From assembly GCF_000027125.1 (NCBI RefSeq), contig NC_017626.1: a stretch of DNA of 64,000 nucleotides; one strand, written 5' to 3'. The notes under the pieces were generated by a model, which was given only the letters and a program-made list of their open reading frames with translations, was not told the DNA's origin and ran no database searches. Positions 4,691-52,874 of the stretch are shown here, in pieces (position 1 is the stretch's first letter; each line of letters starts with the position of its first letter). The DNA comes from Escherichia coli 042. GTDB taxonomy: Bacteria > Pseudomonadota > Gammaproteobacteria > Enterobacterales > Enterobacteriaceae. The translations under genes and the position numbers were made by a program.

Positions 4691-6330
4691 TCACTCACTC
4701 TCCTGCAAGTTTGCAGAATATCATCCGCAGCCTGGTAATACTTCGTCTCAACGCCAGTTAATCCCAATAGCGTGGAGAATAAATTATCTTGTGAATAGTG
4801 TTGCGTTTGCGCCTGTTTTTGCAGGCAGTTCTGGTCAACCTGATACCGTTTTTGATAATCCTCCGACAGCCACAGCAGCATCGGCACCTGTTTTTGGCTA
4901 TCCGGGGCGATGGCATAAGGCAGACCGTGCAGATAGATGCCATTTTCACCTAACGACTCACCGTGGTCAGAAAGATAAACCAGGCTGGTGGTGAATTTAT
5001 CCTGATGTTCTTTCAGCAGATTAATCGCTTTATCAACAATATAGTCGACGTAAACCAGCGTGTTGTCGTAAGTGTTCACCAGTTGCTCTTTGGTACAGGT
5101 CTGGATCTCGTTAGTGTCGCAGGTTGGGGTAAATTTCCTGAACTGCGGCGGATAGCGGTTGTAATAGGTCGGACCGTGGCTGCCGATGGTGTGTAAGACA
5201 ATCACGCCATCACCCTGCAGGTTATTGATGTACTCTTCCAGCCCGTGGAACAGCACTTCGTCATAGCATTCGCCGTTGATGCACTGACCAGGCAGATTCA
5301 GCGCGGTGACGTTCTGGTGAGGCACGCGGTCGCAGGCACCTTTACAGCCGCCATCGTTGTCATTCCACAGCACGTTGATGCCCGCTCGCTGAATGATATC
5401 CAGCACGCCTTCCTGGTGCTGTGCCAGCTCTTCTTTGTAGTGCTCACGCGGCATATCCGAGAACATGCACGGTACTGAAACTGCCGTTGCCGTGCCGCAA
5501 GATGCGGTATTAGGGAAATAGACCACGTTATCTTTTGCCAGCCGCGGGTTAGTTTCACGCGGATAGCCATTGAGGGAGAAGTTCTCCGCCCGCGAGGTTT
5601 CGCCGACAATCAGGATGGTCAAATTTTTACGTTTCTCTTTCTGCATTAATGGGTTGCGGTGCGCGTCTTCACCAATTCGCACCAGCGGCAGATTTGCCAG
5701 TCGCTGATGGGAGTACCATGACCAGCTGGCAACAATGCTGTTAGAGGGGCTTAAGGATTTCACCAGCTCTTTGTTGTTGCGGAACAATGAGGCGTAGTCT
5801 TTATAAAACAGTGCGGCGACCAGCAAAATCAGCAGTACAGACACCAGAATATTGGCTCCACGGAAAAGAACACTGCGCAGGCGCGAGGTGGCAGGTTTGA
5901 TTTTAATCCAGCAGGCAATCAGCGCAGCAAGCACGCCGCTGAATCCCAGCGTTAATAACATTTGCGGCGTCATCAACGCATAACTTTCTGCCGGAGTGGT
6001 ATCAATAATATTGGCAATCATCGAGCGGTCGATGACGATGCCGTAAGTCATTATGAAATATTGTGCAGCCGCGCCGACCAGAATAAACAGGCAGGCCAGC
6101 GGTCGATTAAGCCATAAGAAAGAGCTTAGTGTCAGGACAATATTAATCACGCTGAAGGCGACGACTGGCATCGACAAGAAAACCAGTACGTTATGCAGCG
6201 AGTCCAGCGGCAGCGCCTGCAACACCTGTTTAAAAAAGGCAATATTCAGGCAGATAGAGATATAAAAAGCGGCCAACAATAGCCAGGCGAGTAAATTCAA
6301 AGAGGGTCTTTTTAGTAGGCGCTTCAACAT
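4687..6330 (-). CDS. eptA: Lipid A phosphoethanolamine transferase EptA/PmrC (547 aa from [11 protein letters not shown])
   Basis: Protein recognised; the ATG at 6328-6330 gives 547 aa. ATGA overlap with the basR start as in K-12. Confidence 0.95.
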
Positions 6331-36824: not shown

Positions 36825-37280
36825 TCAGTTAACGTTTTTTCCGGAAACGGTAATTAGCAGTGGATGGTAGTCCTGGGGATCGAAAACCGATAACGGCAGA
36901 CTGACACGATGGCCGTTACTTTCTTCAGTTGCTTTAATGATTTCGGTTGTGGCGACATTTTCCACGCACTCCGTTTCCAGAAATGCGTCTGTGGTTCGCG
37001 TGGCATTACTGTCACCAAAAGCTTCCGTTTCCATTTTTCTGGTCACCAGCGTCTGACCATATTTGTCTTTGAGTTGCAGAGTGATGGTGAGGGGGCCAAA
37101 CCCTTCATCGTTTCCGCCATTATCCAGCCGGAACTGGTAAGCACAAATATTTCCCGGGAGCCATATCGTATCTGTATTGCGTATACTGATGTAACGTTGA
37201 TCCTGTGCCCGGAGTGGGGCAGACCACGTTAACCCCAGAATGAAGGCGGTAATCATGCAGGTTTTGAACAGGTGAATCAT
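36825..37280 (-). CDS. Hypothetical secreted protein with N-terminal signal peptide (151 aa)
   Basis: Hydrophobic N-terminus ending ...APLRAQ (likely SPase I site); no family recognised. Confidence 0.5.
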   Translation of the reverse strand: MIHLFKTCMITAFILGLTWSAPLRAQDQRYISIRNTDTIWLPGNICAYQFRLDNGGNDEGFGPLTITLQLKDKYGQTLVTRKMETEAFGDSNATRTTDAFLETECVENVATTEIIKATEESNGHRVSLPLSVFDPQDYHPLLITVSGKNVN

Positions 37281-37355
37281 GGTATTTACCTCTCTGAATC
37301 ATGACGATGACACTGACAAGTCAGGTGATAAAACGTAAAAGGTGCAGAATACTCG

Positions 37356-39878
37356 TTATGCCGGTAACTCCGGGGGTAATGCTTCTTCCAGCCGGTTAAC
37401 CATATTGCCGAGATGGGATGCATCATATTCCATGACGGGGCGTTGCCTGATGATACTGACCACCAGTGGTTTGATTAACATATTGGTCGCGGCCCGTTGT
37501 TGTATACCGGCGGCGAAAATGATCTCCAGAGCATTCTGATCGATAACACGGGCCAGATTCGCGTTCAGATTTTCTGTTTCATGTCCGGTCAGCAGGAAAC
37601 TGCCGGCAAGCCATGTCACCTGTTCCTGAATCATTGCCAGAATTTTGACGCGATCTTCTTCAACCAGCGCTCCGGCAATTTTTCCTGATACAGCGGAGGC
37701 AATCATTCCCCCCAGAACACCGCCAACCACACGCCCTGTCAGTGCACCAAATGGTCCCAGTGGACTGAACAGTATCCCGCCCGCCACTGACCCGACAGCT
37801 CCACCTGCCACACCGGAAGATGCCACGGCAAGATTCCTGATGAACTGCGTACCGGAGATCCGTCCCCGCAACATTTTGATCATGTCAGGGCCGGTTGTGA
37901 CAGCTACCAGTGCCAGAGATGTCACCAGCGTACCCTTCATCACTTTGTTCAGGGCACTGATATTTCCTGTACCGGTCCCCTTCTGAAGAGCCAGTCGGAC
38001 AGTCGGACTGGCCGTCGAAAAATCAATGTGCTTCAGCATACCCTGAACAACACTGAGCCGGTGAAGTTGCTGGGTTGTGACGTAGACAGCCAGTGTGCGG
38101 GTGAAGGTTTTTCCTGCCTGGACAGCAGCTGTCTGCAGGGCAGCATCGCGATCGCCGGTGCTGAGCCAGAAGACCGATGCCGTCAGGGCAAAACTGATCC
38201 CTCCGGCCGCCAGACTGACAACCGAACCCTCGGCAATATCATAAGTGACCGATTCGATGGTCCCGAACCGGGTGATATTACGGGCCTGGGTATAAGTCAG
38301 ATGTCCCCGACGAATCAGCCGGGACGCTTCTGCGGGATCGGTTACACCAGGTACTTTACCTTCGCGGATCTTATTCCTCATGGTTTCAACAGCGCCGGCA
38401 TACTGATCACGGGGGACTTCCAGTTGCATGGGGCCATGATTTCCCATGTAACGATACTGTCCGTTTTGTCCGTCGAATGCCGCACCGACGCTACGGGCTG
38501 CAGTTGAACAATATTTCGTCTGGATCTCTGTTCCGCTGACCAGTCTGTCTGCTCCATTTCTGGCATTATTATCACCGAGGATCCGTGCGTTTTTCAGACG
38601 GACTCTGTCGACAATATGGTTTCCCCGTTCAGCGGCAAACCCATGTCCCTGCCCTCCGGAAGCAAACATTTTCTCATTTGTACTCCAGGTTTCCGGCAGT
38701 TTCATGAGAATCAGACCATTCGCCGTTGCATCGGAAATAAAACTGTTGTAGGGGCGTTCATAAATTTCCTGACACAGTGTTTCTGTTTCGCGACAAAGAG
38801 AGGAGCAGTACCATTCCGGATCCGGCTTATGATTTTCCGGGGCATGATGTACTTCTGTCAGCCCGCAGGAGGCACAGATACGAAGCTCATCCACGTGATG
38901 GAATGATACAAAACGGCGACCTTCTGAAAAGGGATACCAGTCACCGCCGTCCAGGCAACGATCGAGAAAATCGTCATTCGCTTCCGGTGATAAATTCAGG
39001 CGGTTCCGGAAGAGGGTTTTCAGTTCATCAGGGGTAAATGACAGGCTCTCTCTCAGCTTTTCGTTGAAACCCGCCATGTTTCTTTCATACCAGGCATTGT
39101 CCAGTAGCCAGTTTCCGTCTGCCAGTTCAAATTCCCTCAGTTCTCCCCGGGAAATCCGTTGTGAAATGAGTGTCAGCCAGATGCGCTCCGTCAGCGTTTC
39201 AGGAAGGCTGTAATCGTTTTGCAAACTGCTCAGCCATGATTTACTGTTGAGCACCGGTTGTTCTTCCAGTGTCTGGCTGATGGCACTGGTCAGTCTTTTC
39301 AGCGCCTGGATCTGGCTGGCCGCCCATAGCAGCGTCACTAATGCAGCCAGCCAGTACAACAACCCGCCCCACCACATCAGTGAGGGTGAAATATCGAACT
39401 GCAATGCGATCAATGGTGCGTATGCAGAACACGCCATAAGGAAAAAGGCAGTATAAAAACAGCAGTAATACCCGTTAATTTCCTTGCTGATATCTTCAGG
39501 TGTGAGCCCGTTCTGCTGAATGGTTCTTATCTGCACGGGAAGAGCCAGCAGACCAGCGGCGAGAGCGGTGGTCAGAATAAATTTTACAGAGTCAAAAGTA
39601 TGAGCCTCCAGTGCGATATGTTTACCATCAAGTCCCCACATGAAGCTGATGATCATTCCGGCAATCGTCAGAAATACGCCTGCCAGCCAGCGAATATGGA
39701 ATAACCGGGTTATGCGTTCAGTGATATAGCCAGCCAGTAAAGCCGGACCGAACAGACACAGCAATATGAACCCTGCCAGCGCAGACGCTGTGCTGGTTAA
39801 TGCTCTGAACAAAAGGCGAAGAATGGCAAATCCTGCGATCAGCAGAATCAGCGCGCCGACTATCTGTAACATAGTCAC
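37356..39878 (-). CDS. YeeR-like inner membrane protein (840 aa): N-terminal polytopic domain, central CxxC...CxxxC zinc-ribbon-like motif, C-terminal glycine-zipper-rich segment
   Basis: Positioned immediately downstream of agn43 as yeeR is in CP4-44, but much longer than K-12 YeeR. Confidence 0.6.
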   Translation of the reverse strand: MTMLQIVGALILLIAGFAILRLLFRALTSTASALAGFILLCLFGPALLAGYITERITRLFHIRWLAGVFLTIAGMIISFMWGLDGKHIALEAHTFDSVKFILTTALAAGLLALPVQIRTIQQNGLTPEDISKEINGYYCCFYTAFFLMACSAYAPLIALQFDISPSLMWWGGLLYWLAALVTLLWAASQIQALKRLTSAISQTLEEQPVLNSKSWLSSLQNDYSLPETLTERIWLTLISQRISRGELREFELADGNWLLDNAWYERNMAGFNEKLRESLSFTPDELKTLFRNRLNLSPEANDDFLDRCLDGGDWYPFSEGRRFVSFHHVDELRICASCGLTEVHHAPENHKPDPEWYCSSLCRETETLCQEIYERPYNSFISDATANGLILMKLPETWSTNEKMFASGGQGHGFAAERGNHIVDRVRLKNARILGDNNARNGADRLVSGTEIQTKYCSTAARSVGAAFDGQNGQYRYMGNHGPMQLEVPRDQYAGAVETMRNKIREGKVPGVTDPAEASRLIRRGHLTYTQARNITRFGTIESVTYDIAEGSVVSLAAGGISFALTASVFWLSTGDRDAALQTAAVQAGKTFTRTLAVYVTTQQLHRLSVVQGMLKHIDFSTASPTVRLALQKGTGTGNISALNKVMKGTLVTSLALVAVTTGPDMIKMLRGRISGTQFIRNLAVASSGVAGGAVGSVAGGILFSPLGPFGALTGRVVGGVLGGMIASAVSGKIAGALVEEDRVKILAMIQEQVTWLAGSFLLTGHETENLNANLARVIDQNALEIIFAAGIQQRAATNMLIKPLVVSIIRQRPVMEYDASHLGNMVNRLEEALPPELPA

Positions 39879-39992
39879 TCCGTGATGAATATCATGTTAT
39901 TGTGAATGCCAGTGAATGTGGCACTGAAATGTTTTCCCCCGTCCGGGTCCCGGTCATGATGACCGGAACCACAGAGAGGCAATGCAGAATTA

Positions 39993-42900
39993 TCAGAAGG
40001 TCACATTCAGCGTGGCCTGACTGTTATAACCTTCAGCGCTGCTGCCGCTGACGCTGTGGGCATAACCGGCCTGAACGCCCAGGGTGATATTTTCCCGGAC
40101 ACGGGCTTCCAGTCCGGCCTGCAGATCCAGTGAAGTGCCATTCTGTGAGGGAGAGAACGTCATCCCGCTGCCTGCGGTGGAGGTCCCCACACGCATATCA
40201 CCCCGGGAGCTGAAGGTGCGGATAACGGAAGGCTGTACCCACCAGTTCACCGGCAGTTCACGCACACTGTGTTTTGCACTGTCACGCAGGGGGGCACGGG
40301 ATGAGGTGCCTTCACCAAAGGTCATATCGTTGTGGCTGCCCAGACGGAAACCGGCACGCACATGTTGTGCACTGCCATGCCCGAACTTCACATAACCGGC
40401 GTTGTCCTTACCGTCATCCAGCGAAAGCCCCTGCCAGGTGTACTGCAGCCGTGGCTCCAGCATCAGGTTGTCAGTAATACTGAAGGGCAGACCGGTTTCC
40501 AGTGAGCCCAGCCAGCCCCAGCCCCGTGCGCGGAAGTCGTTATTGCCCGATGACGCTTTCATACTGTGGCGGGTTCCCTGTGCCACAATGTCAGCCCACA
40601 GGCCGGAGGAGGTGTGTGTCAGGTTCATATATCCGCCCAGGCTGCCGGCATCATCCCGGACCGTGCCGGCGCGGGAGCCGTCATCATCCTTAACATCAAC
40701 GGAAGAATGGCCTGCAGCACCATACACTCCTGTCGTCAGTGACATACCGGCGACCTCTGTTCTGAGCAGGTCACCCTCCAGACGGACGAAGCCATAGCTG
40801 CCGCTGCTTTCCGGCGTGGCCCCACGGGCAATACCGCCGTTGTTATCGTGACCGAGATGGCCGCCCTGAATGCTGAGACGGACGCTGTTATTTTCACCGT
40901 TTACACCGGTCTGATGGCTGCGTGAGCCTGCCAGAATCCGGTCATAGTCCATTGCCTGTGTCAGCATGGAGGCGTACAGGGGGACTTCAGCACGATAACG
41001 TTCTTCACTGCGCAGATACCAGCTCTCATCACTGTCCCGGTTGAGGGTGTAGTTAAAGGCCCCGGCCTGCAGCATATTCCCCTGGACAAAAGCCCCTTCC
41101 TCCGTGGTGGCACCGTTAATGGCCTCAACCACCTGAATACCCTTACCGGTGGTCGCCAGCCCCGTACCACTGTTGCCGGCGTTCACCAGATTCAGGATGG
41201 TTTTTCCGGTTGCCCTGCCACCGTCAATGACCAGTCTGTCAGCATTGTTCTGCGCCATATCCGGGCGTACACGCAGGCTGATGGTGCCATTCTGCCCGTT
41301 CAGGTTTTTCACCTGCAGGGTTGCCGGTACGAACTTCCCTGTGCGGGTGGAGGTGAAATGAATCTGTCCGGCATGGCTGAGGTCATCCACCACCGACTGC
41401 ACCGTGGCGTTATCAGGGATATTCCAGGTGGCACCGGATGTCAGGGTGACATTCGTGGGGTCAATGGCACCGTTCAGCACTGTGCTGCCGGTCAGCTTCA
41501 GGGCCGTGCCGCGCTGAGCGATGACATCCGTGGTGACGGTACTGTCGTTCAGCGTCAGCGTGCCTTCATTCAGGTTGACGGTTTTCTGGGTGAGTGTGGT
41601 GTTGCTGACAGTGAGTGTGCCACTTCCTGATTTTTCCACCCTGCCGTTACCGGTAAGAGCGCCTCCCTGCAGGAGTGCATCACCTTCACGGATGGTCAGG
41701 GTATCGTTATTCACCGTTTTCCCGGAAAGGGTAAGCGTGGCACCGTTATTCAGCGTGGTGGTGCCCGCCAGCGAGCCCCCTCTGGCAGTGAACAGTCCGC
41801 CATTTACCGTGGTATCCGTGGCCGTATCACCGGCGTTCAGCGTGAATGAACTGCCTTTTTCCAGCATCAGGGCATCCGCCTGACCGCCCCCGATACGGAA
41901 TGCCGTTCCGTCGCTCCGGGTACCACTGACAGCGGCCCCGGAATCGGCCAGCAGTACACCGCCATTCCCCATGGATACGGTGGTGGCGGCACCACCGTTG
42001 CGGACATCCAGCGTTCCGCCATCATCCACACGGGTATTAGTGGCTGTGTGTCCGCTCAGCACATCCAGACGTCCGCCATTTTCCAGTACGACATTATCAG
42101 CCTTACCCGCCAGAACGGAGAATGCTCCCAGGCGGTTTGTGCCGGTGACGGTTGCAGCTGTGCTGGTAACCAGTGCACCTCCCGTGTTCTGGGTGACATC
42201 AGACGCTTTACCGCCGGCATTCACCTGCAGCTTTCCTTTCTGGTTGATGGTGGTATGCGCGGTAGTTCCTCCTTCCTTAATCACCTGCCAGCCCCCCTCG
42301 TTAATTACCGTGTTCAGCGCAAGTCCGTATTTGTGCACATACTGGTTTCCTCCCTCCAGCCGGGTGTTATGTGCCTCGCCGTGTACCGTCTGGTCACCGC
42401 CGGCGTAAATGAGGGTGTCCCGTGCCATCCCCGAAGACCAGATAACCTGCCGGCCATTTTTGTTGATGGTGGTGGATTCAGCCGTCCCTCCGACCATCTG
42501 ACCGCTGGACACATTTTCAGACTCCGGACCACCTTCTGCACCGGTGTTGACGATGGTTCCGGTTGCCTGCCCGCCATGTTTAATGGTCTGGTAGCCAGAC
42601 TGGTTAATCACCGTTCCGGATGCACTGCCGCCTGCATGTATCCATTGTTCACCACCGTTAAGGACAGTACCGTAAGCCTGCCCGCGCAGATTCTGTCCTC
42701 CACCGGCACTGATAACCGTATCCGTGGCACTGCCACCTGCCATGACATCCTGCAGACCGTTTGCGGTGACCGTGGTGTTTCTGGCAGTGCCACCCCGGGC
42801 TATCTGCTGACCGCCGGTGTTGTCATCAGAGTCCGGCCCCAGCTCAAGCCCGGTACTGACAGTCACGCCATCAGCTGTTCCGGATACAAACTGGTTGTCA

Positions 42901-43112
42901 TGGTTTACCAGTGTTCCGCCATTCACTGTTTCACCCGGGTGCACAACGATGTCAGCAGCCAGCACCGGGAGTGACGTGACTGCGGCAAGAGACAGTGCAA
43001 CCGCCACACCGCCACGTTTACCCCGTGCGCGGGCCAGTTCGGAGGCAACCACGAAAGCGCCCGTAATGTGATTCCATACCAGCCTGTAGCAGGTATTCAG
43101 ATGTCGTTTCAT
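39993..43112 (-). CDS. flu: Antigen 43 (Ag43/Flu) self-associating autotransporter adhesin (1039 aa from MKRHLNTCYRLVWNH)
   Basis: Signal peptide, repetitive beta-helix passenger and C-terminal beta-barrel; ATG at 43110-43112. Confidence 0.92.
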   Translation of the reverse strand: MKRHLNTCYRLVWNHITGAFVVASELARARGKRGGVAVALSLAAVTSLPVLAADIVVHPGETVNGGTLVNHDNQFVSGTADGVTVSTGLELGPDSDDNTGGQQIARGGTARNTTVTANGLQDVMAGGSATDTVISAGGGQNLRGQAYGTVLNGGEQWIHAGGSASGTVINQSGYQTIKHGGQATGTIVNTGAEGGPESENVSSGQMVGGTAESTTINKNGRQVIWSSGMARDTLIYAGGDQTVHGEAHNTRLEGGNQYVHKYGLALNTVINEGGWQVIKEGGTTAHTTINQKGKLQVNAGGKASDVTQNTGGALVTSTAATVTGTNRLGAFSVLAGKADNVVLENGGRLDVLSGHTATNTRVDDGGTLDVRNGGAATTVSMGNGGVLLADSGAAVSGTRSDGTAFRIGGGQADALMLEKGSSFTLNAGDTATDTTVNGGLFTARGGSLAGTTTLNNGATLTLSGKTVNNDTLTIREGDALLQGGALTGNGRVEKSGSGTLTVSNTTLTQKTVNLNEGTLTLNDSTVTTDVIAQRGTALKLTGSTVLNGAIDPTNVTLTSGATWNIPDNATVQSVVDDLSHAGQIHFTSTRTGKFVPATLQVKNLNGQNGTISLRVRPDMAQNNADRLVIDGGRATGKTILNLVNAGNSGTGLATTGKGIQVVEAINGATTEEGAFVQGNMLQAGAFNYTLNRDSDESWYLRSEERYRAEVPLYASMLTQAMDYDRILAGSRSHQTGVNGENNSVRLSIQGGHLGHDNNGGIARGATPESSGSYGFVRLEGDLLRTEVAGMSLTTGVYGAAGHSSVDVKDDDGSRAGTVRDDAGSLGGYMNLTHTSSGLWADIVAQGTRHSMKASSGNNDFRARGWGWLGSLETGLPFSITDNLMLEPRLQYTWQGLSLDDGKDNAGYVKFGHGSAQHVRAGFRLGSHNDMTFGEGTSSRAPLRDSAKHSVRELPVNWWVQPSVIRTFSSRGDMRVGTSTAGSGMTFSPSQNGTSLDLQAGLEARVRENITLGVQAGYAHSVSGSSAEGYNSQATLNVTF

Positions 43113-44427: not shown

Positions 44428-45447
44428 TTACTTCCTTCGCTTGTGTTCAAGATATTTCTCTGTAATCAGCATTTCAAAAAACTCTCCTGTTCTCAGACCG
44501 TAAACAGTTCTGAGCTCATCAAGCATTTCTTTCACATTGCTTCTTATATGTATATTAATGGCCTTTTTACCATCACTCCGATATTTGTCCTTTTGTTTTT
44601 TCTGATGCCAGGCATGATTTATTCGTGTTCTGAACAGTTCAATGGTATCAGGCGCTTCTTTCCATAAAGCAAAGGCGACAAGAGAGGCAAGATAATATTC
44701 TTTCGTTGAAGATGGTATGAACCACCGGGTCACTGGGTTATGTACTGGATGTTTTTCATCCTGTTTTTGTTTCAGTCTTGTCCAGAACCACTGACACATT
44801 TCATCATCGTCAGGAAGGAACCACTTAAACTTTTGACAAGCGCTTTTCTTTTTAAGCCACGCCTGCCTGAGTTCCTCGAGGTATATGCTTTTTGCATTTT
44901 TATTAATTAAAGAATGGCAGGAGTCAAAATATGAAATGATTACTTTTATTCGTTCGTTATGGGATGATGGATTATCCGGAAGGTTACTTTTTTTGTAAGT
45001 ATTTAACGTTTCATCGGTAACTGTTCGTATTTTCCTGACTTCAATTCCGTTTTTTATTCCTGATGAATTATGGTTTATTTTCGGGAATTTTGTATGGTCT
45101 TCCTTCGACAGATAAATAGTAGTCCAGGTAAAGAAAGTCGCAAGTTCGTCAGTTTTCAACCAGAGAAAACTCTCTTCAGGCAGTATTGCCTGCCCTGCAA
45201 TAATTTCAAGTTCATTAATTTCTTTGCTGAGAGCTTCTTCTGCAGTCGAACCAAAAACACCAAAAGAATTGTTTGAAGCTTTATAATACTTTTCTTTTAA
45301 AAACGAATTAACATTTCTGATACAGTTTTGTGGGTTGTCAGGCGCAAACTGAGGGAATTCATTGGGGTATTTGTGATTCAGATATTCGGCATAAAACCGA
45401 CATTTACGGGGATCTTTGCATTTGATAAGCATCTGTTCGTTATTCAT
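44428..45447 (-). CDS. Hypothetical protein, 339 aa, Lys/Trp/Phe-rich, AT-rich gene
   Basis: Long ORF in a strongly AT-rich segment; no family recognised. Confidence 0.5.
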   Translation of the reverse strand: MNNEQMLIKCKDPRKCRFYAEYLNHKYPNEFPQFAPDNPQNCIRNVNSFLKEKYYKASNNSFGVFGSTAEEALSKEINELEIIAGQAILPEESFLWLKTDELATFFTWTTIYLSKEDHTKFPKINHNSSGIKNGIEVRKIRTVTDETLNTYKKSNLPDNPSSHNERIKVIISYFDSCHSLINKNAKSIYLEELRQAWLKKKSACQKFKWFLPDDDEMCQWFWTRLKQKQDEKHPVHNPVTRWFIPSSTKEYYLASLVAFALWKEAPDTIELFRTRINHAWHQKKQKDKYRSDGKKAINIHIRSNVKEMLDELRTVYGLRTGEFFEMLITEKYLEHKRRK

Positions 45448-46941
45448 TATCTCACTCCATGTCGCCTCTCTTATAACAAAATCGTCTCAATTTTATTTTG
45501 TCACTAAGTGATTATCAAATGTTTTTGTTGTGATTTGTTTATGTTTTTAAATGTCTATGTCATGTTATCAGTGTTTTTATATAAAGATACATTGATGTTT
45601 TTATGATGGTGAAAAATCATATTTTCTTTTATATTCATTTGGTTATGATTGTTTGTTCTGCATTTGGGGGATGACAGAAAAGAATGGGCTGTGTTGATCA
45701 CATGCGCCGTATGCGCTGTCCAGGTTACAGCGCACCTCAATATTCAGTGTTTTCCTGTTGACTGGCATTGTTAATCTTATGTTTTTGGTTTTGTTTTATT
45801 GTGTGGTTGTGAATGTTGTGTTTGGTTTGATGGTTGAGAAAGAAAAAAGAAGACTATGATGCACTAATCAGGAAATATTTTCGACGCCGGTTGAGTTAAA
45901 AGAACAGATAGAGTGGACAGGTGTTGTGTTAATAGTTTACGGCTGACAGCATTCTTATTTTAATAACAGGTGTTATTATTTATGGATTTATACAGACGAT
46001 ACTCCCGCTAAATAGTCAGGTGATGATGGTCGTTGAGTGGTTTTATAAGCTACGTATAGCTCTGTAAGACTTATTAATTCAACGATGACTACCGTTTATT
46101 GATATACATGTATTCGGGAAATGTCATAAAAAATGTCACGTTGTTTGCAGAATCTTTTGTTTTTTAGTTTTTGATACGCAATGACTAAGCAGGAGGACTC
46201 ACTTTGTTTGTATGCTGACCGTGATCGTCAGTGGAGATGAACAATTGACTCTTACACTGAAAAATATACTCTCTTGTTTTTTATCGTTTATCTGCATGAA
46301 ATAAATAATCTTCAGCATTTTTCATGTGAATTTCATCATCTTACCCTGAATGTTCATTTTATCAGTATGATATTCCTTTGTTTACTGATAAAATTAACCG
46401 ATAAATGTTCTTGTTAAGATTGCCAGAATGACAGTTTTTGCTGATTCCGTGCAATGGAAGAGATATTATATCATCTATTTAAGCAATAAGTTTAATACAA
46501 ATTTCAGAAGATGTGTTGGTGAGTTGATGACTAATTTTCAGAGGGGGATGGAAAAGTGTATGGAATCCCACAAAGAAAAAATCGTTATTGTTCAGTTGAC
46601 GTTTATTTCTGGGTGATGACTCCAGTCAGCAGAATATGTTTTTTTCGATGAATGACCCAATAACTTTTTCGTGAATTTCCACGGAGCATGAAAAGCAAAT
46701 CGTTTTCCGGTCCAGCCGTTTGATGTGGGAACGGGGGCAGATGGTGGTGCTCAATGCGCCGGGTAAATATCAATACGATTTGAGGAACCATTTGCTGGTT
46801 AATCTCTTTCCGATAGCATTGGATGCAGCAATCACTACATCCAACGTGAATAACCATGAATTGCACAGAAACAATATACCTGCGACCCTCTCCGGAAATT
46901 CCGGTATCACTGACTACGTACCGCCCGGGAGTGATTATGAA

Positions 46942-47806: not shown

Positions 47807-48504
47807 GAAAATGTTCCTCCGGATGTTGTTAATCTCAACCGGCGTTGGTGATGAAAAACGCACCACCTTCACTGGCATAACAACCGGGGAGAAACGTAAA
47901 AAATGAGCAGGGGAATATTCCTGTCGGGAGATAAACAGGGAGCATGATGCTGGGATACCCGGTGGCTACCGCGAAACGATGTTTCTCGCGCGTACGCACG
48001 ACAGAGAAGGGATGATTTTCGGGAGGATGAGGGGAAGAACCGTCGTTCTTATAATTGCAGAGTTATTTACGGGGCGGTTACGGTGGGGCAGCTCGTGCCT
48101 TGTGGGCAGGGACAGGTATCACCGATGGGATAAGACTGTCTGATTGGTATTATAAATATATAAGAGAGATCAAACACATGAGTTCATATCTGTGAAATAA
48201 ACACTGTGAGTGTGATCAGTGGGTATGAGAACGCAGTAGCAACAGATTACGTTGTACTCACAGGGCTATCCCTGATAGCTGGCGTATAACCTGCGTATAT
48301 AAAACGTACCTGCAACACACGTGAACAGAGTGCATTAAGCATCCGTCTGAGCGGTAAACGTATCCGACCTGGTGAGTGACAGTCTGAGAGACCGGTTAAG
48401 TGGTGGTGCGGGAGTAATGAGTTTGGGGTGGGTACCAGAATGCCAGTCAGGTGCGGTATGCTGGCAGTATCACGTTAATTGCAGCATAAAGTGATGAGAG
48501 GCTA

Positions 48505-48717
48505 ATGGAAGTTAAAACCAAAGAAGACTGGCTGTATCAGTTCCGTCGTTGTTCATCCCGGGAGACGCTGGAAAAAGTGATTTCCCACACACGTTATAAA
48601 CTTACCCTTGCGGAGCTGGAAGCCTTCAACTCTGCGGTTGATCACCGACTGGCAGAACTAACCATGAACAAACTTTACGATCGCGTTCCGGCTTCTGTCT
48701 GGAAATATGTTACCTGA
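48505..48717 (+). CDS. Hha/YmoA-family haemolysin-expression-modulating protein paralog (70 aa)
   Basis: ...[50 protein letters not shown] aligns closely with chromosomal Hha (..[50 protein letters not shown]). Confidence 0.8.
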   Translation: [70 protein letters not shown]

Positions 48718-49333
48718 ACGTTCGGTAATCACAGCGGTATTGTGCCGGGCGTTATATGCCTGTGATTCTTTTGCTCTTCTCTGGTTGCTGCAAAGCTGAA
48801 TATGTTCCTGTTGTTGGAGGCCGAGGTAATACCGGGAACGTTAAGCGGTATAGCGACAACAAAGAATTCGAAATCAAAAGGGAATGGTGTACGGAGGTGC
48901 GGGCGGTAATGGGCCGATTTTCGGGCATTACCGACCTCTGCTGAGGTTTTCTCGTATTAGCCGGGGATCCGGTGCGTTGAATATTGACGGCATAAACCGA
49001 CAGGCAGAGTCAGCACCAGCAGTGACGTCAGTAGACAGCGCCGACGATCGGTATTCCGGTAATGGGCAACATCCGTATTATGAGTAATTGCCTTACCACA
49101 ATCCCTGCACACCGTTTTGTGTATCACCATAGCTCCCTCCTCACAGTCTTATCTGTAACCGGTTTTTGGCATTAAAAAAACAACGCTGAAAATTCAGCCG
49201 TCAGTCCGGAGACGACAATCGGGTTATCACAGAGTGCCTGAGATATTGCCCGGTTGGAGGTCACTTCAGGGACTCTGCGCATTTTTTACGGCGTGGTTAT
49301 TCCGTATGAACGAAACCATACGGAGATTTAACC

Positions 49334-49903
49334 ATGACATACGAGTACAACCCCTTCTGGCAACAACGTATCCGTGAGACGGTGCTGCGCGCACTGGATG
49401 TTCATCCCCGTCTGACGGCATTGCGGATTGACCTGCGTCTCCCGGATGTACCGGCAGCAACTGACGCAGCAGTGATATCCCGCTTCATCAATGCCCTGAA
49501 AGCCCGAATCGATGCTTATCAGAAGCGTAAGCGCCGTGAAGGCAAACGCGTGCATCCCACAACCCTGCATTACGTCTGGGCCCGGGAGTTTGGGGAGTGC
49601 AAAGGTAAAAAACACTATCACCTGATGCTGCTGGTCAACCGGGATACCTGGTGTCGTGCCGGCGATTACCGCGCTCCGGGATCACTGGCCGGGATGATTA
49701 AACAGGCGTGGTGCAGTGCCCTGGGAGTGGATACCGGAGATCATACCACGCTGGCGCATTTTCCGGTCAGGCCGGCGGTGTGGCTGGAACGCGATGATGA
49801 CACCGGCTTTCAGCAGGTGCTGGAGCGTGCTGACTATCTGGCGAAGGAGAGTACCAAAGCTTACGGCACCGGTGAGCGCAACTTTGGCTGCAGTCGTGGC
49901 TGA
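49334..49903 (+). CDS. YagK/YfjJ-family protein (inovirus Gp2-like), 189 aa
   Basis: Family assignment from recalled similarity to the CP4-6 YagK and CP4-57 YfjJ proteins. Confidence 0.6.
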   Translation: MTYEYNPFWQQRIRETVLRALDVHPRLTALRIDLRLPDVPAATDAAVISRFINALKARIDAYQKRKRREGKRVHPTTLHYVWAREFGECKGKKHYHLMLLVNRDTWCRAGDYRAPGSLAGMIKQAWCSALGVDTGDHTTLAHFPVRPAVWLERDDDTGFQQVLERADYLAKESTKAYGTGERNFGCSRG

Positions 49904-50064: not shown

Positions 50065-50454
50065 ATGACGATGTACGCAAAATCCTTTCTCGCACTTGAT
50101 GGCAACGGACGTCTGACCGGTGCCCGTACCGCACAGACAGCGCCATACGATCGTTACACCTGCCACCTCTGTGGCAGTGCTCTCAGATACCACCCGCAAT
50201 ACGACACTGAACGTCCCTGGTTTGAACACACTGACGACGGGCTGACTGAGCATGGTCATGAGTGCCCTTATGTCAGACCGGAGCGCAGAGAAATACTGTT
50301 GATTAAACGCTTACGGCAATTCGTACCGGACGCCTTACCCGTAGTGCGTAAAGCCAGCTGGCACTGCAGACAATGTCACCACGATTATTATGGGGAGCAG
50401 TACTGCACACACTGTCATACAGGGCGCTTCAGTGAGGAGGTGGTTGCAGAATGA
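50065..50454 (+). CDS. Cys/His-rich zinc-ribbon protein (129 aa), module A of a tandem pair
   Basis: CHLCGS...WFEH...WHCRQCHHDYYGEQYCTHCH motifs. Confidence 0.5.
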   Translation: MTMYAKSFLALDGNGRLTGARTAQTAPYDRYTCHLCGSALRYHPQYDTERPWFEHTDDGLTEHGHECPYVRPERREILLIKRLRQFVPDALPVVRKASWHCRQCHHDYYGEQYCTHCHTGRFSEEVVAE

Positions 50455-50863
50455 ACGGTATAAAAACGGGGCTGGGATCACGCCGGGTGAGCACATTATC
50501 AGTGCCGATTCTGCGCTCAGCAGAAATATCCGGCATTGTTTCTGTCTTTCCTGTCGTGGCCGGTTGATTTTGCAGACAGATGCTCAGGGGGCGTGGTTTG
50601 AGCACGATTTACATGCCCTGAGCGCGCAACAGAAGGCGGCCTGCGTGGTGCTGAATCCGGAAAAATCCCATCCTTACATTGATGATATGGCGATGTTTTT
50701 ATCGCCATTACCTGTCGTGCTGGAGTGGCATTGTGTGATGTGCGGGCAGCATTTTTCCGGGAAAAAGTTCTGTGAAGCCTGTGGCACGGGGATTTATTGC
50801 AGAGCGGCATGTACGAAGTATGTTTACAGATACCAGCCAGATTTGCTCCGGGACCAGGAGTGA
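50390..50863 (+). CDS. Cys/His-rich zinc-ribbon protein, paralogous module B; start uncertain (the first ATG lies 65 nt inside module A in another frame)
   Basis: CFCLSC...WFEH...WHCVMCGQHFSGKKFCEACG parallels module A. Confidence 0.45.
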   Translation: MGSSTAHTVIQGASVRRWLQNERYKNGAGITPGEHIISADSALSRNIRHCFCLSCRGRLILQTDAQGAWFEHDLHALSAQQKAACVVLNPEKSHPYIDDMAMFLSPLPVVLEWHCVMCGQHFSGKKFCEACGTGIYCRAACTKYVYRYQPDLLRDQE

Positions 50864-52368: not shown

Positions 52369-52744
52369 AGATTTCAGAACGGTAACAGTTAACTAAATTT
52401 TCATGTGGTAGCACTGAATCAGGAGTCTCTGCCTCCTGATGTGTTTTGTTAATCTTCTGTTTTTACTAGAAATCCCCTCACTCCTTCTTTCATTGCATTT
52501 TGTTGGGCCCTTCCTCCATATCTTTCCCGCTTTCCAGAAATCACGTCAATGCTGCTGAAACTTTACTCATTGTGATTTTCAATGACTGAAATCAAGAAAA
52601 TACAGTGTTTATGTTAACTGGCTGTATCAAAAGTGTTTTGTGGAATAATTTTCTGTATTTTTACATTAACAATGGTTATAAGCTTTGAATATTCATTATT
52701 TTGCGACATTCCATAGAATAAAGTCCTGATTATTTGCATTATAT

Positions 52745-52797
52745 CGATCGATGTATCTGTTATATTGAGATTTTTCAGATCTTCGTCCTATAATGAT
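52745..52797 (+). promoter_or_regulatory. Putative T6SS (sci-1-like) promoter: -10 TATAAT (52788-52793), Fur-box-like ATAATGATCAAAATTA, three GATC sites (52745, 52777, 52794)
   Basis: AT-rich 470-bp region upstream of tssB; GATC overlaps the -10/Fur-like element. Confidence 0.5.
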
Positions 52798-52874
52798 CAA
52801 AATTAAATCAGTGCACAAGGGGAGGCATCTGCGGTGATGGAACCCCTGAGATGCAGGTTTCACAGGAGAGAGCC

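Follow-up and report, generated by a model that had tools for sequence, protein, structure and literature searches.

A probable hha2 allele, coding for an Hha/YmoA-family protein, in the backbone of a CP4-type island of Escherichia coli

In EAEC 042, where the closest described system has been studied, two extra hha paralogues are present, named hha2 (EC042_4516) and hha3 (EC042_4796) (Prieto et al. 2016, Sci Rep, PMC4864382). According to the work of the Juarez group, hha2 is expressed in 042 at a level slightly below that of hha, and all three paralogues modulate the ag43 gene EC042_2242; in this strain they had no significant effect on EC042_4511, the ag43 copy that adjoins hha2, EC042_2242 being the only copy with a significant response. 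In the hha hha2 double mutant, the genes of the duplicated flu-yeeR-irmA region 2 are de-repressed 2.2- to 6.2-fold, as in the hns mutant; the same double mutation raises IrmA_4509, the product of a gene located in the same island as hha2, and here the deletion of hns is without response, a difference which hints at an H-NS-independent route. Since most of the functional data have been obtained with double or triple mutants, it is hard to tell what Hha2 contributes by itself; taken as they stand, the published 042 data support a co-repressor role of the protein. In the literature searched, no demonstration of a direct binding of Hha2 to H-NS was found, nor any data on the regulation of a type VI secretion system (T6SS) by Hha2; the T6SS and the tags EC042_4511 to 4525 are absent from the text of the 042 RNA-seq supplement.

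For Hha itself, several residues needed for activity have been identified. D48 is strictly required and E25 is important for the binding of H-NS (de Alba 2011 as cited in PMC4519777), and in the double mutant R14A/R17A the binding of H-NS is kept, yet silencing and DNA collapse are abolished (PMC4231757).

The locus considered here belongs to a stretch of 64,000 nucleotides of E. coli DNA, hereafter the window, within which a single hha-like copy is found. The coding sequence and the element preceding it are the following:

48505 to 48717, plus strand: hha2 coding sequence, ATG start, 70 aa, 8.4 kDa (8397 Da), pI 8.8
48496 to 48501, plus strand: Shine-Dalgarno-like GAGAGG, 3 nt 5' of the hha2 ATG, seen in the sequence

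The GAGAGG motif is kept in most of the related copies, and the opposite strand carries no overlapping ORF of 40 aa or more across the gene. The original prediction, made from the letters of the DNA, had been that the 70-aa ORF codes for an island-borne paralogue of the Hha/YmoA family, and family profiles, alignment and fold comparison all agree with it. The product matches the Pfam family HHA (PF05321) with E=2e-27 and 95.6 bits (gathering cut-off 25) and the NCBIfam Hha subfamily NF008191 with 106 bits (cut-off 90), and it scores 49 bits with the YdgT/Cnu equivalog NF007703, below the cut-off of 101. When solved structures were searched by sequence (phmmer), Hha (1jw2/2mw2 and 4icg) was matched with E about 4e-22, YmoA with 5e-21 and YdgT/Cnu (2jqt) with 2.5e-10 and two indels. 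The AF2 model of the product (pLDDT 78.6) has helices at residues 6-14, 19-30, 35-54 and 63-66, and is superimposed by Foldseek on the Hha chain of the Hha/H-NS(1-46) crystal (4icg_C) with TM 0.90/0.94 and an rmsd of 1.0 A; 1jw2 and 2k5s are also among the Foldseek matches. Identity amounts to 56% with Hha of K-12, 57% with YmoA and about 51% with YdgT; at 56%, the description of the protein as a clearly diverged copy of Hha is right, as is that of its core motif as nearly identical to the one of Hha, 15 of the 16 residues quoted being the same. Named homologues are enterobacterial only (Escherichia, Salmonella, Klebsiella, Citrobacter, Yersinia, Serratia, Hafnia, Kluyvera and Enterobacter). 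The ORF at 48505-48717 is, in conclusion, a real and clear member of the Hha/YmoA family.

The protein was also checked for loss of the residues that interact with H-NS, and no loss was found at the two acidic positions, E25 and D48 of Hha being retained as E23 and D46; in an alignment of 40 sequences E23 is invariant and D46 is conserved in at least 90%, and the product has the family residue at 14 of 14 invariant and 15 of 15 near-invariant columns. C16, R14 and R15, which correspond to Hha C18, R16 and R17, are all kept. The basic surface is changed at one position, where Arg14 of Hha is replaced by Gln (Q12); Gln is the usual residue at this position in the IncI and in many other plasmid or mobile Hha proteins. 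Lysines and arginines number 12 in Hha2 vs 13 in Hha, the calculated pI is 8.82 vs 8.79, and the net charge is unchanged.

Which of the extra paralogues the ORF corresponds to can be judged from the published primers and from the gene order. The hha2-specific primers match the window with 0 mismatches at 48601-48620 (plus strand) and 48686-48707 (minus strand), enclosing a 107-bp amplicon (48601-48707); of the primers for hha3 (4796), the forward one has no site with up to 3 mismatches and the reverse one has 2 mismatches. The hha2 forward primer covers the codon for Leu35 (ACC CTT GCG), the residue by which this allele differs from the more common alleles with Pro35. The genes run in the order irmA, yeeR-like, agn43, GTPase, hypothetical, IS1 remnant, hypothetical, alpA-like, hha2, which fits the published tags of irmA (EC042_4509), ag43 (EC042_4511) and hha2 (EC042_4516), and hha2 lies in a flu-yeeR-irmA island region, at a distance of five genes from a copy of ag43. 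RefSeq annotates the ORF as hha (WP_000453331.1), and the 1.4 kb surrounding it are 100% identical in several E. coli chromosomes and 99.9% identical in 55989 and in the O104:H4 outbreak lineage. It can thus be stated with good confidence that the ORF is an intact, expressed-type hha2 allele, first described as EC042_4516 in EAEC 042, for which an Hha-like mechanism is the most likely; primers and synteny taken together suggest that the match to EC042_4516 would extend to the level of single residues.

The window as a whole is collinear with 55989 and NCTC9082. From left to right it carries spt, the glc operon, sslE and the gsp genes for type II secretion as far as yghD; the island abuts yghD/gsp, as it does in 55989 and in O104:H4, and contains, in order, DUF4942, cbtA/cbeA, radC, an antirestriction gene, DUF932, DUF905, irmA, a yeeR-like gene, agn43 and a GTPase gene, followed by the gene for a 339-aa protein, an IS1 remnant, the gene for a 190-aa hypothetical protein and the alpA-like HTH gene. 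Divergently from the latter run hha2, two very small hypothetical genes, a gene of the YagK/YfjJ family, a pair of DUF7828/zinc-ribbon genes, a few more hypothetical genes and DUF4222, after which come tssB and the other genes of a T6SS cluster. The 64-kb window contains no tRNA gene. Among the parts of the island are:

36825 to 43112, minus strand: irmA, yeeR-like membrane protein and agn43 cluster (RefSeq annotation of a collinear record; link with hha2, PMC6480617, PMC9431211)
47600 to 47806, minus strand: alpA-like HTH gene (Pfam Phage_AlpA, E=4e-9), left neighbour of hha2, divergent
49334 to 49903, plus strand: YagK/YfjJ-family gene ("inovirus Gp2 family"; Pfam YagK_YfjJ_C, E=6e-48), right neighbour of hha2

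In the related chromosomal loci examined, the YagK/YfjJ and zinc-ribbon genes are constant on the right of hha2, and the alpA-like gene is constant on the left wherever the left flank survives, having been lost by deletion or IS insertion in two loci (L010 and L014). The recurrence of the same flanks therefore identifies hha2 as a backbone gene of an island family and not as strain-specific cargo: hha2 is part of the conserved backbone (alpA-like, hha2, yfjJ-like, zinc-ribbon) of a CP4-type island. One component of this backbone is probably damaged in the window, namely the second DUF7828/zinc-ribbon gene; at 50065-50863 the two zinc-ribbon ORFs overlap by 65 nt, as compared with 4 nt in sister loci, and in 55989 the second ORF is a frameshifted pseudogene by annotation, and for these reasons damage to the gene is likely.

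As for the possible targets of silencing on the island, the supposition that its agn43 and T6SS promoters are AT-rich is borne out in one half only. The region before tssB (52369-52850) has 35.5% GC, so that the description of the T6SS promoter as AT-rich holds; upstream of agn43 the bias is only mild, 45.9% vs 50.5% for the whole window. The T6SS cluster resembles by gene order the sci1 T6SS of EAEC 042, a cluster which in 042 is under the control of Fur and Dam (PMC3145626). The most AT-rich DNA near hha2 is a 2.4-kb segment at 44428-46800 (36% GC), separating the GTPase gene from the IS1 remnant and encoding the 339-aa protein (WP_001403577.1), for which no Pfam family was found; this segment is a more likely target of H-NS than the agn43 promoter (46% GC). 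The statement that no hns-like partner gene is visible was found to be correct, none being annotated in the collinear RefSeq records and a tblastn search of the window with one H-NS query sequence returning only noise.

The non-coding DNA preceding hha2, estimated originally at about 600 bp, measures 698 bp to the annotated start of the alpA-like gene (47806) and 626 bp to the start of its longest ORF; over its whole 698 bp the gap has 48.4% GC and cannot be called AT-rich. Its part adjacent to hha2 and a candidate element downstream of the gene deserve a separate description:

48085 to 48504, plus strand: conserved non-coding block, 420 bp directly 5' of hha2, presumed promoter and 5' leader
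48746 to 48772, plus strand: terminator-like hairpin followed by a T-run, 29 nt past the hha2 stop, from a consensus scan only

The block at 48085-48504 is 85-92% identical among five island copies, as opposed to only 44-74% on the alpA-like side; it is read here as the putative promoter and leader of hha2. It encloses an AT-rich core of 45 nt (48127-48171, GGGATAAGACTGTCTGATTGGTATTATAAATATATAAGAGAG...) that is invariant in the five copies, with 31% GC over 48127-48175. A perfect TATAAT is present on the minus strand of this core; on the plus strand upstream of hha2, a consensus scan gave no sigma-70-like site. An Rfam search of the gap at E<=1 returned no match and the fold z-score is +0.46, and a structured RNA upstream of hha2 was therefore rejected; the 54-, 46- and 40-aa ORFs in the gap were likewise not taken as genes, because they are broken by indels in the sister copies. 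An upstream region common to hha2 and to the hha genes of IncI-type plasmids was also considered and rejected, the DNA similarity being confined to the coding sequence. In strain Ec55 (L011) the upstream block carries, at the equivalent of 48383, an insertion of 189 nt flanked by a repeated CTGAGAG, which may be a small mobile insertion. Downstream, the predicted terminator weakly suggests that hha2 is monocistronic, the weakness being due both to its origin in a consensus scan only and to the poor conservation of this stretch between copies.

The distribution of hha2 is wide and its state of preservation uneven. The exact Hha2 protein is found on at least 1000 contigs, and DNA related to hha2 is present in 3662 of the 5426 complete E. 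coli genomes, 2208 of these 3662 covering at least 80% of the gene; nearly all of the matches in complete genomes are chromosomal. An hha gene is carried by at least 5000 plasmids, and among these only 5 plasmid records have alleles at least 90% identical to hha2, in agreement with the published remark of the Juarez group that hha2 and hha3 are not plasmid-borne. The reading frame was checked for disruption in related strains, and hha2 is intact in every genome that has this island copy. In the sister modules of other strains one allele is intact and one has a 1-nt frameshift; a 14-nt deletion near codon 8 is recurrent (window equivalent 48524-48537; L011 and L012, 5001-5199), and the other copies include an IS2-truncated form of 58 aa and an unannotated remnant. 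In many strains the 14-nt deletion frameshifts the hha2-like N-terminus, and some of the deleted alleles seem to regain the frame from an upstream start, as in the 74-aa proteins P0031 and P0036, beginning MQHKVTRDEWKLKPEQFRRC...; outside the frameshifted N-terminus the gene keeps a pN/pS of 0.05-0.24. The number of frameshifted, truncated or remnant copies in other islands implies that hha2 is dispensable. Between alleles differing at 6-32% of synonymous sites, pN/pS is 0.05-0.24 (about 0.1), and these values indicate a strong purifying selection on the Hha2 protein.

If Hha2 works as Hha does, the four-helix protein would bind the N-terminal dimerisation domain of H-NS through an acidic face, by means of the residues corresponding to E25 and D48 of Hha, and would also bind StpA or other H-NS paralogues encoded elsewhere; its basic face, presented on H-NS, would promote DNA bridging, and the cell pool of Hha-type co-repressor would thereby be enlarged, with a stronger silencing of horizontally acquired DNA, the flu-yeeR-irmA modules included. 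That such a protein could tune the H-NS silencing of the cargo of its own island, as suggested in the original prediction, had been proposed and in part shown in EAEC 042 (PMC4864382, PMC6480617, PMC9431211). A physical binding of Hha2 to H-NS is presumed, and the protein may also act on the neighbouring T6SS.

Other readings of the same locus have to be weighed against the Hha-like one. The decay of the sister copies, by 1-nt frameshift, 14-nt deletion, IS2 truncation or reduction to a remnant, and the coverage of at least 80% of the gene in only 2208 of 3662 matching genomes, are what would be seen if hha2 were a dispensable backbone gene devoid of a specific regulatory role, kept by chance and heading to decay; such neutrality is unlikely, since it is at odds with the low pN/pS (0.05-0.24) and the conservation of the 420-bp upstream block, with the expression of hha2 and the deletion phenotypes reported in 042, and with the extreme commonness of the exact protein. 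Decidedly unlikely is a protein that occupies the Hha site on H-NS and bridges DNA less because of the replacement of R14 by Gln, acting as a tuner, as a partial anti-silencer or independently of H-NS. R14 corresponds to Q12 in Hha2, and R14A/R17A Hha binds H-NS yet cannot silence (PMC4231757); moreover, irmA_4509 is de-repressed in the hha hha2 mutant and not in hns, and H-NS-independent effects of Hha are known in Salmonella (PMC4519777). The equivalents of R16 and R17 are nevertheless kept in Hha2, whose net charge and pI match those of Hha; at this position the mobile Hha clades have Gln as their consensus residue, and genes become de-repressed when hha and hha2 are lost, as they should if the product is a co-repressor.

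A further extension of the idea would make Hha2 a dedicated regulator of the CP4-type island backbone, with its own 420-bp control region and a Gln-for-Arg14 face giving altered bridging or H-NS-independent activity, by which the expression levels of the alpA-like and yfjJ-like genes, of irmA-yeeR-agn43 and possibly of the Fur/Dam-controlled T6SS would be selectively determined; this proposal is speculative and unlikely. Chromosomal hha lies downstream of tomB, the two genes forming the TomB-Hha pair, in which TomB oxidises Cys18 of Hha. As this cysteine is conserved in Hha2 as C16, the protein might in principle be the toxin of a TomB-Hha-like type VII toxin-antitoxin pair that stabilises the island. 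Such a role is most improbable: no TomB-like coding potential was detected in the window, where tblastn with one TomB query sequence gave a best E of 0.48 at a site away from hha2; there is no conserved ORF in the 698 bp upstream of the gene, and the island already has cbtA/cbeA. The Hha-like co-repressor remains the preferred reading.

Extra Hha copies mark pathogenic lineages of E. coli (EAEC, STEC and ST131), in which they are thought to help in holding virulence modules that have been newly acquired and duplicated, antigen 43 and IrmA among them, under the control of H-NS. The name hha2, its association with pathogenic lineages, its linkage with agn43/yeeR/irmA and its proposed role are already published (PMC4864382, PMC6480617, PMC5861252, PMC9431211), and the window therefore adds no new biology to this story; the additions are modest, and consist in the recognition that hha2 belongs to the backbone of an island module that recurs, with the Hha proteins of IncI-type plasmids as its closest relatives, in the strong purifying selection yet frequent loss of the gene, and in its conserved upstream region.

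Compared with the known members of the family, the locus shows no demonstrable difference from hha2 of EAEC 042 (PMC4864382; Bernabeu et al. 2019, PMC6480617), with which it shares the primer sites, the order of the genes from irmA to hha2, the protein family and the island setting beside agn43 with a T6SS cluster downstream. With chromosomal Hha of E. coli and Salmonella (1jw2, 2mw2, 4icg) Hha2 has in common the length class, the four-helix fold, the identical core motif and the residues E25, D48, C18, R16 and R17 in Hha numbering; it differs in its 56% identity and in the change of R14 to Gln, and the gene differs from chromosomal hha in being without an upstream tomB, island-borne, variably present and often decayed. 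YdgT/Cnu (2jqt) belongs to the same family and presumably shares the partner H-NS/StpA, but is much more distant (49 bits against a cut-off of 101, phmmer E=2.5e-10, two indels). The nearest clade outside the island alleles is that of the Hha proteins of IncI-type plasmids, which are 74-77% identical, form the sister group in the NJ tree and share with Hha2 both the Gln at the position of Hha R14 and the FNSA motif. In plasmids of Salmonella and E. coli (L004-L008, hha at 6001-6210), the IncI-type gene comes directly after traW-traX-(traY)-excA, and some of these loci continue with a gene for a second exclusion protein or with a module of the hok or mqsA type; it is in this plasmid location, and in a different upstream region, that the IncI-type genes differ from hha2.
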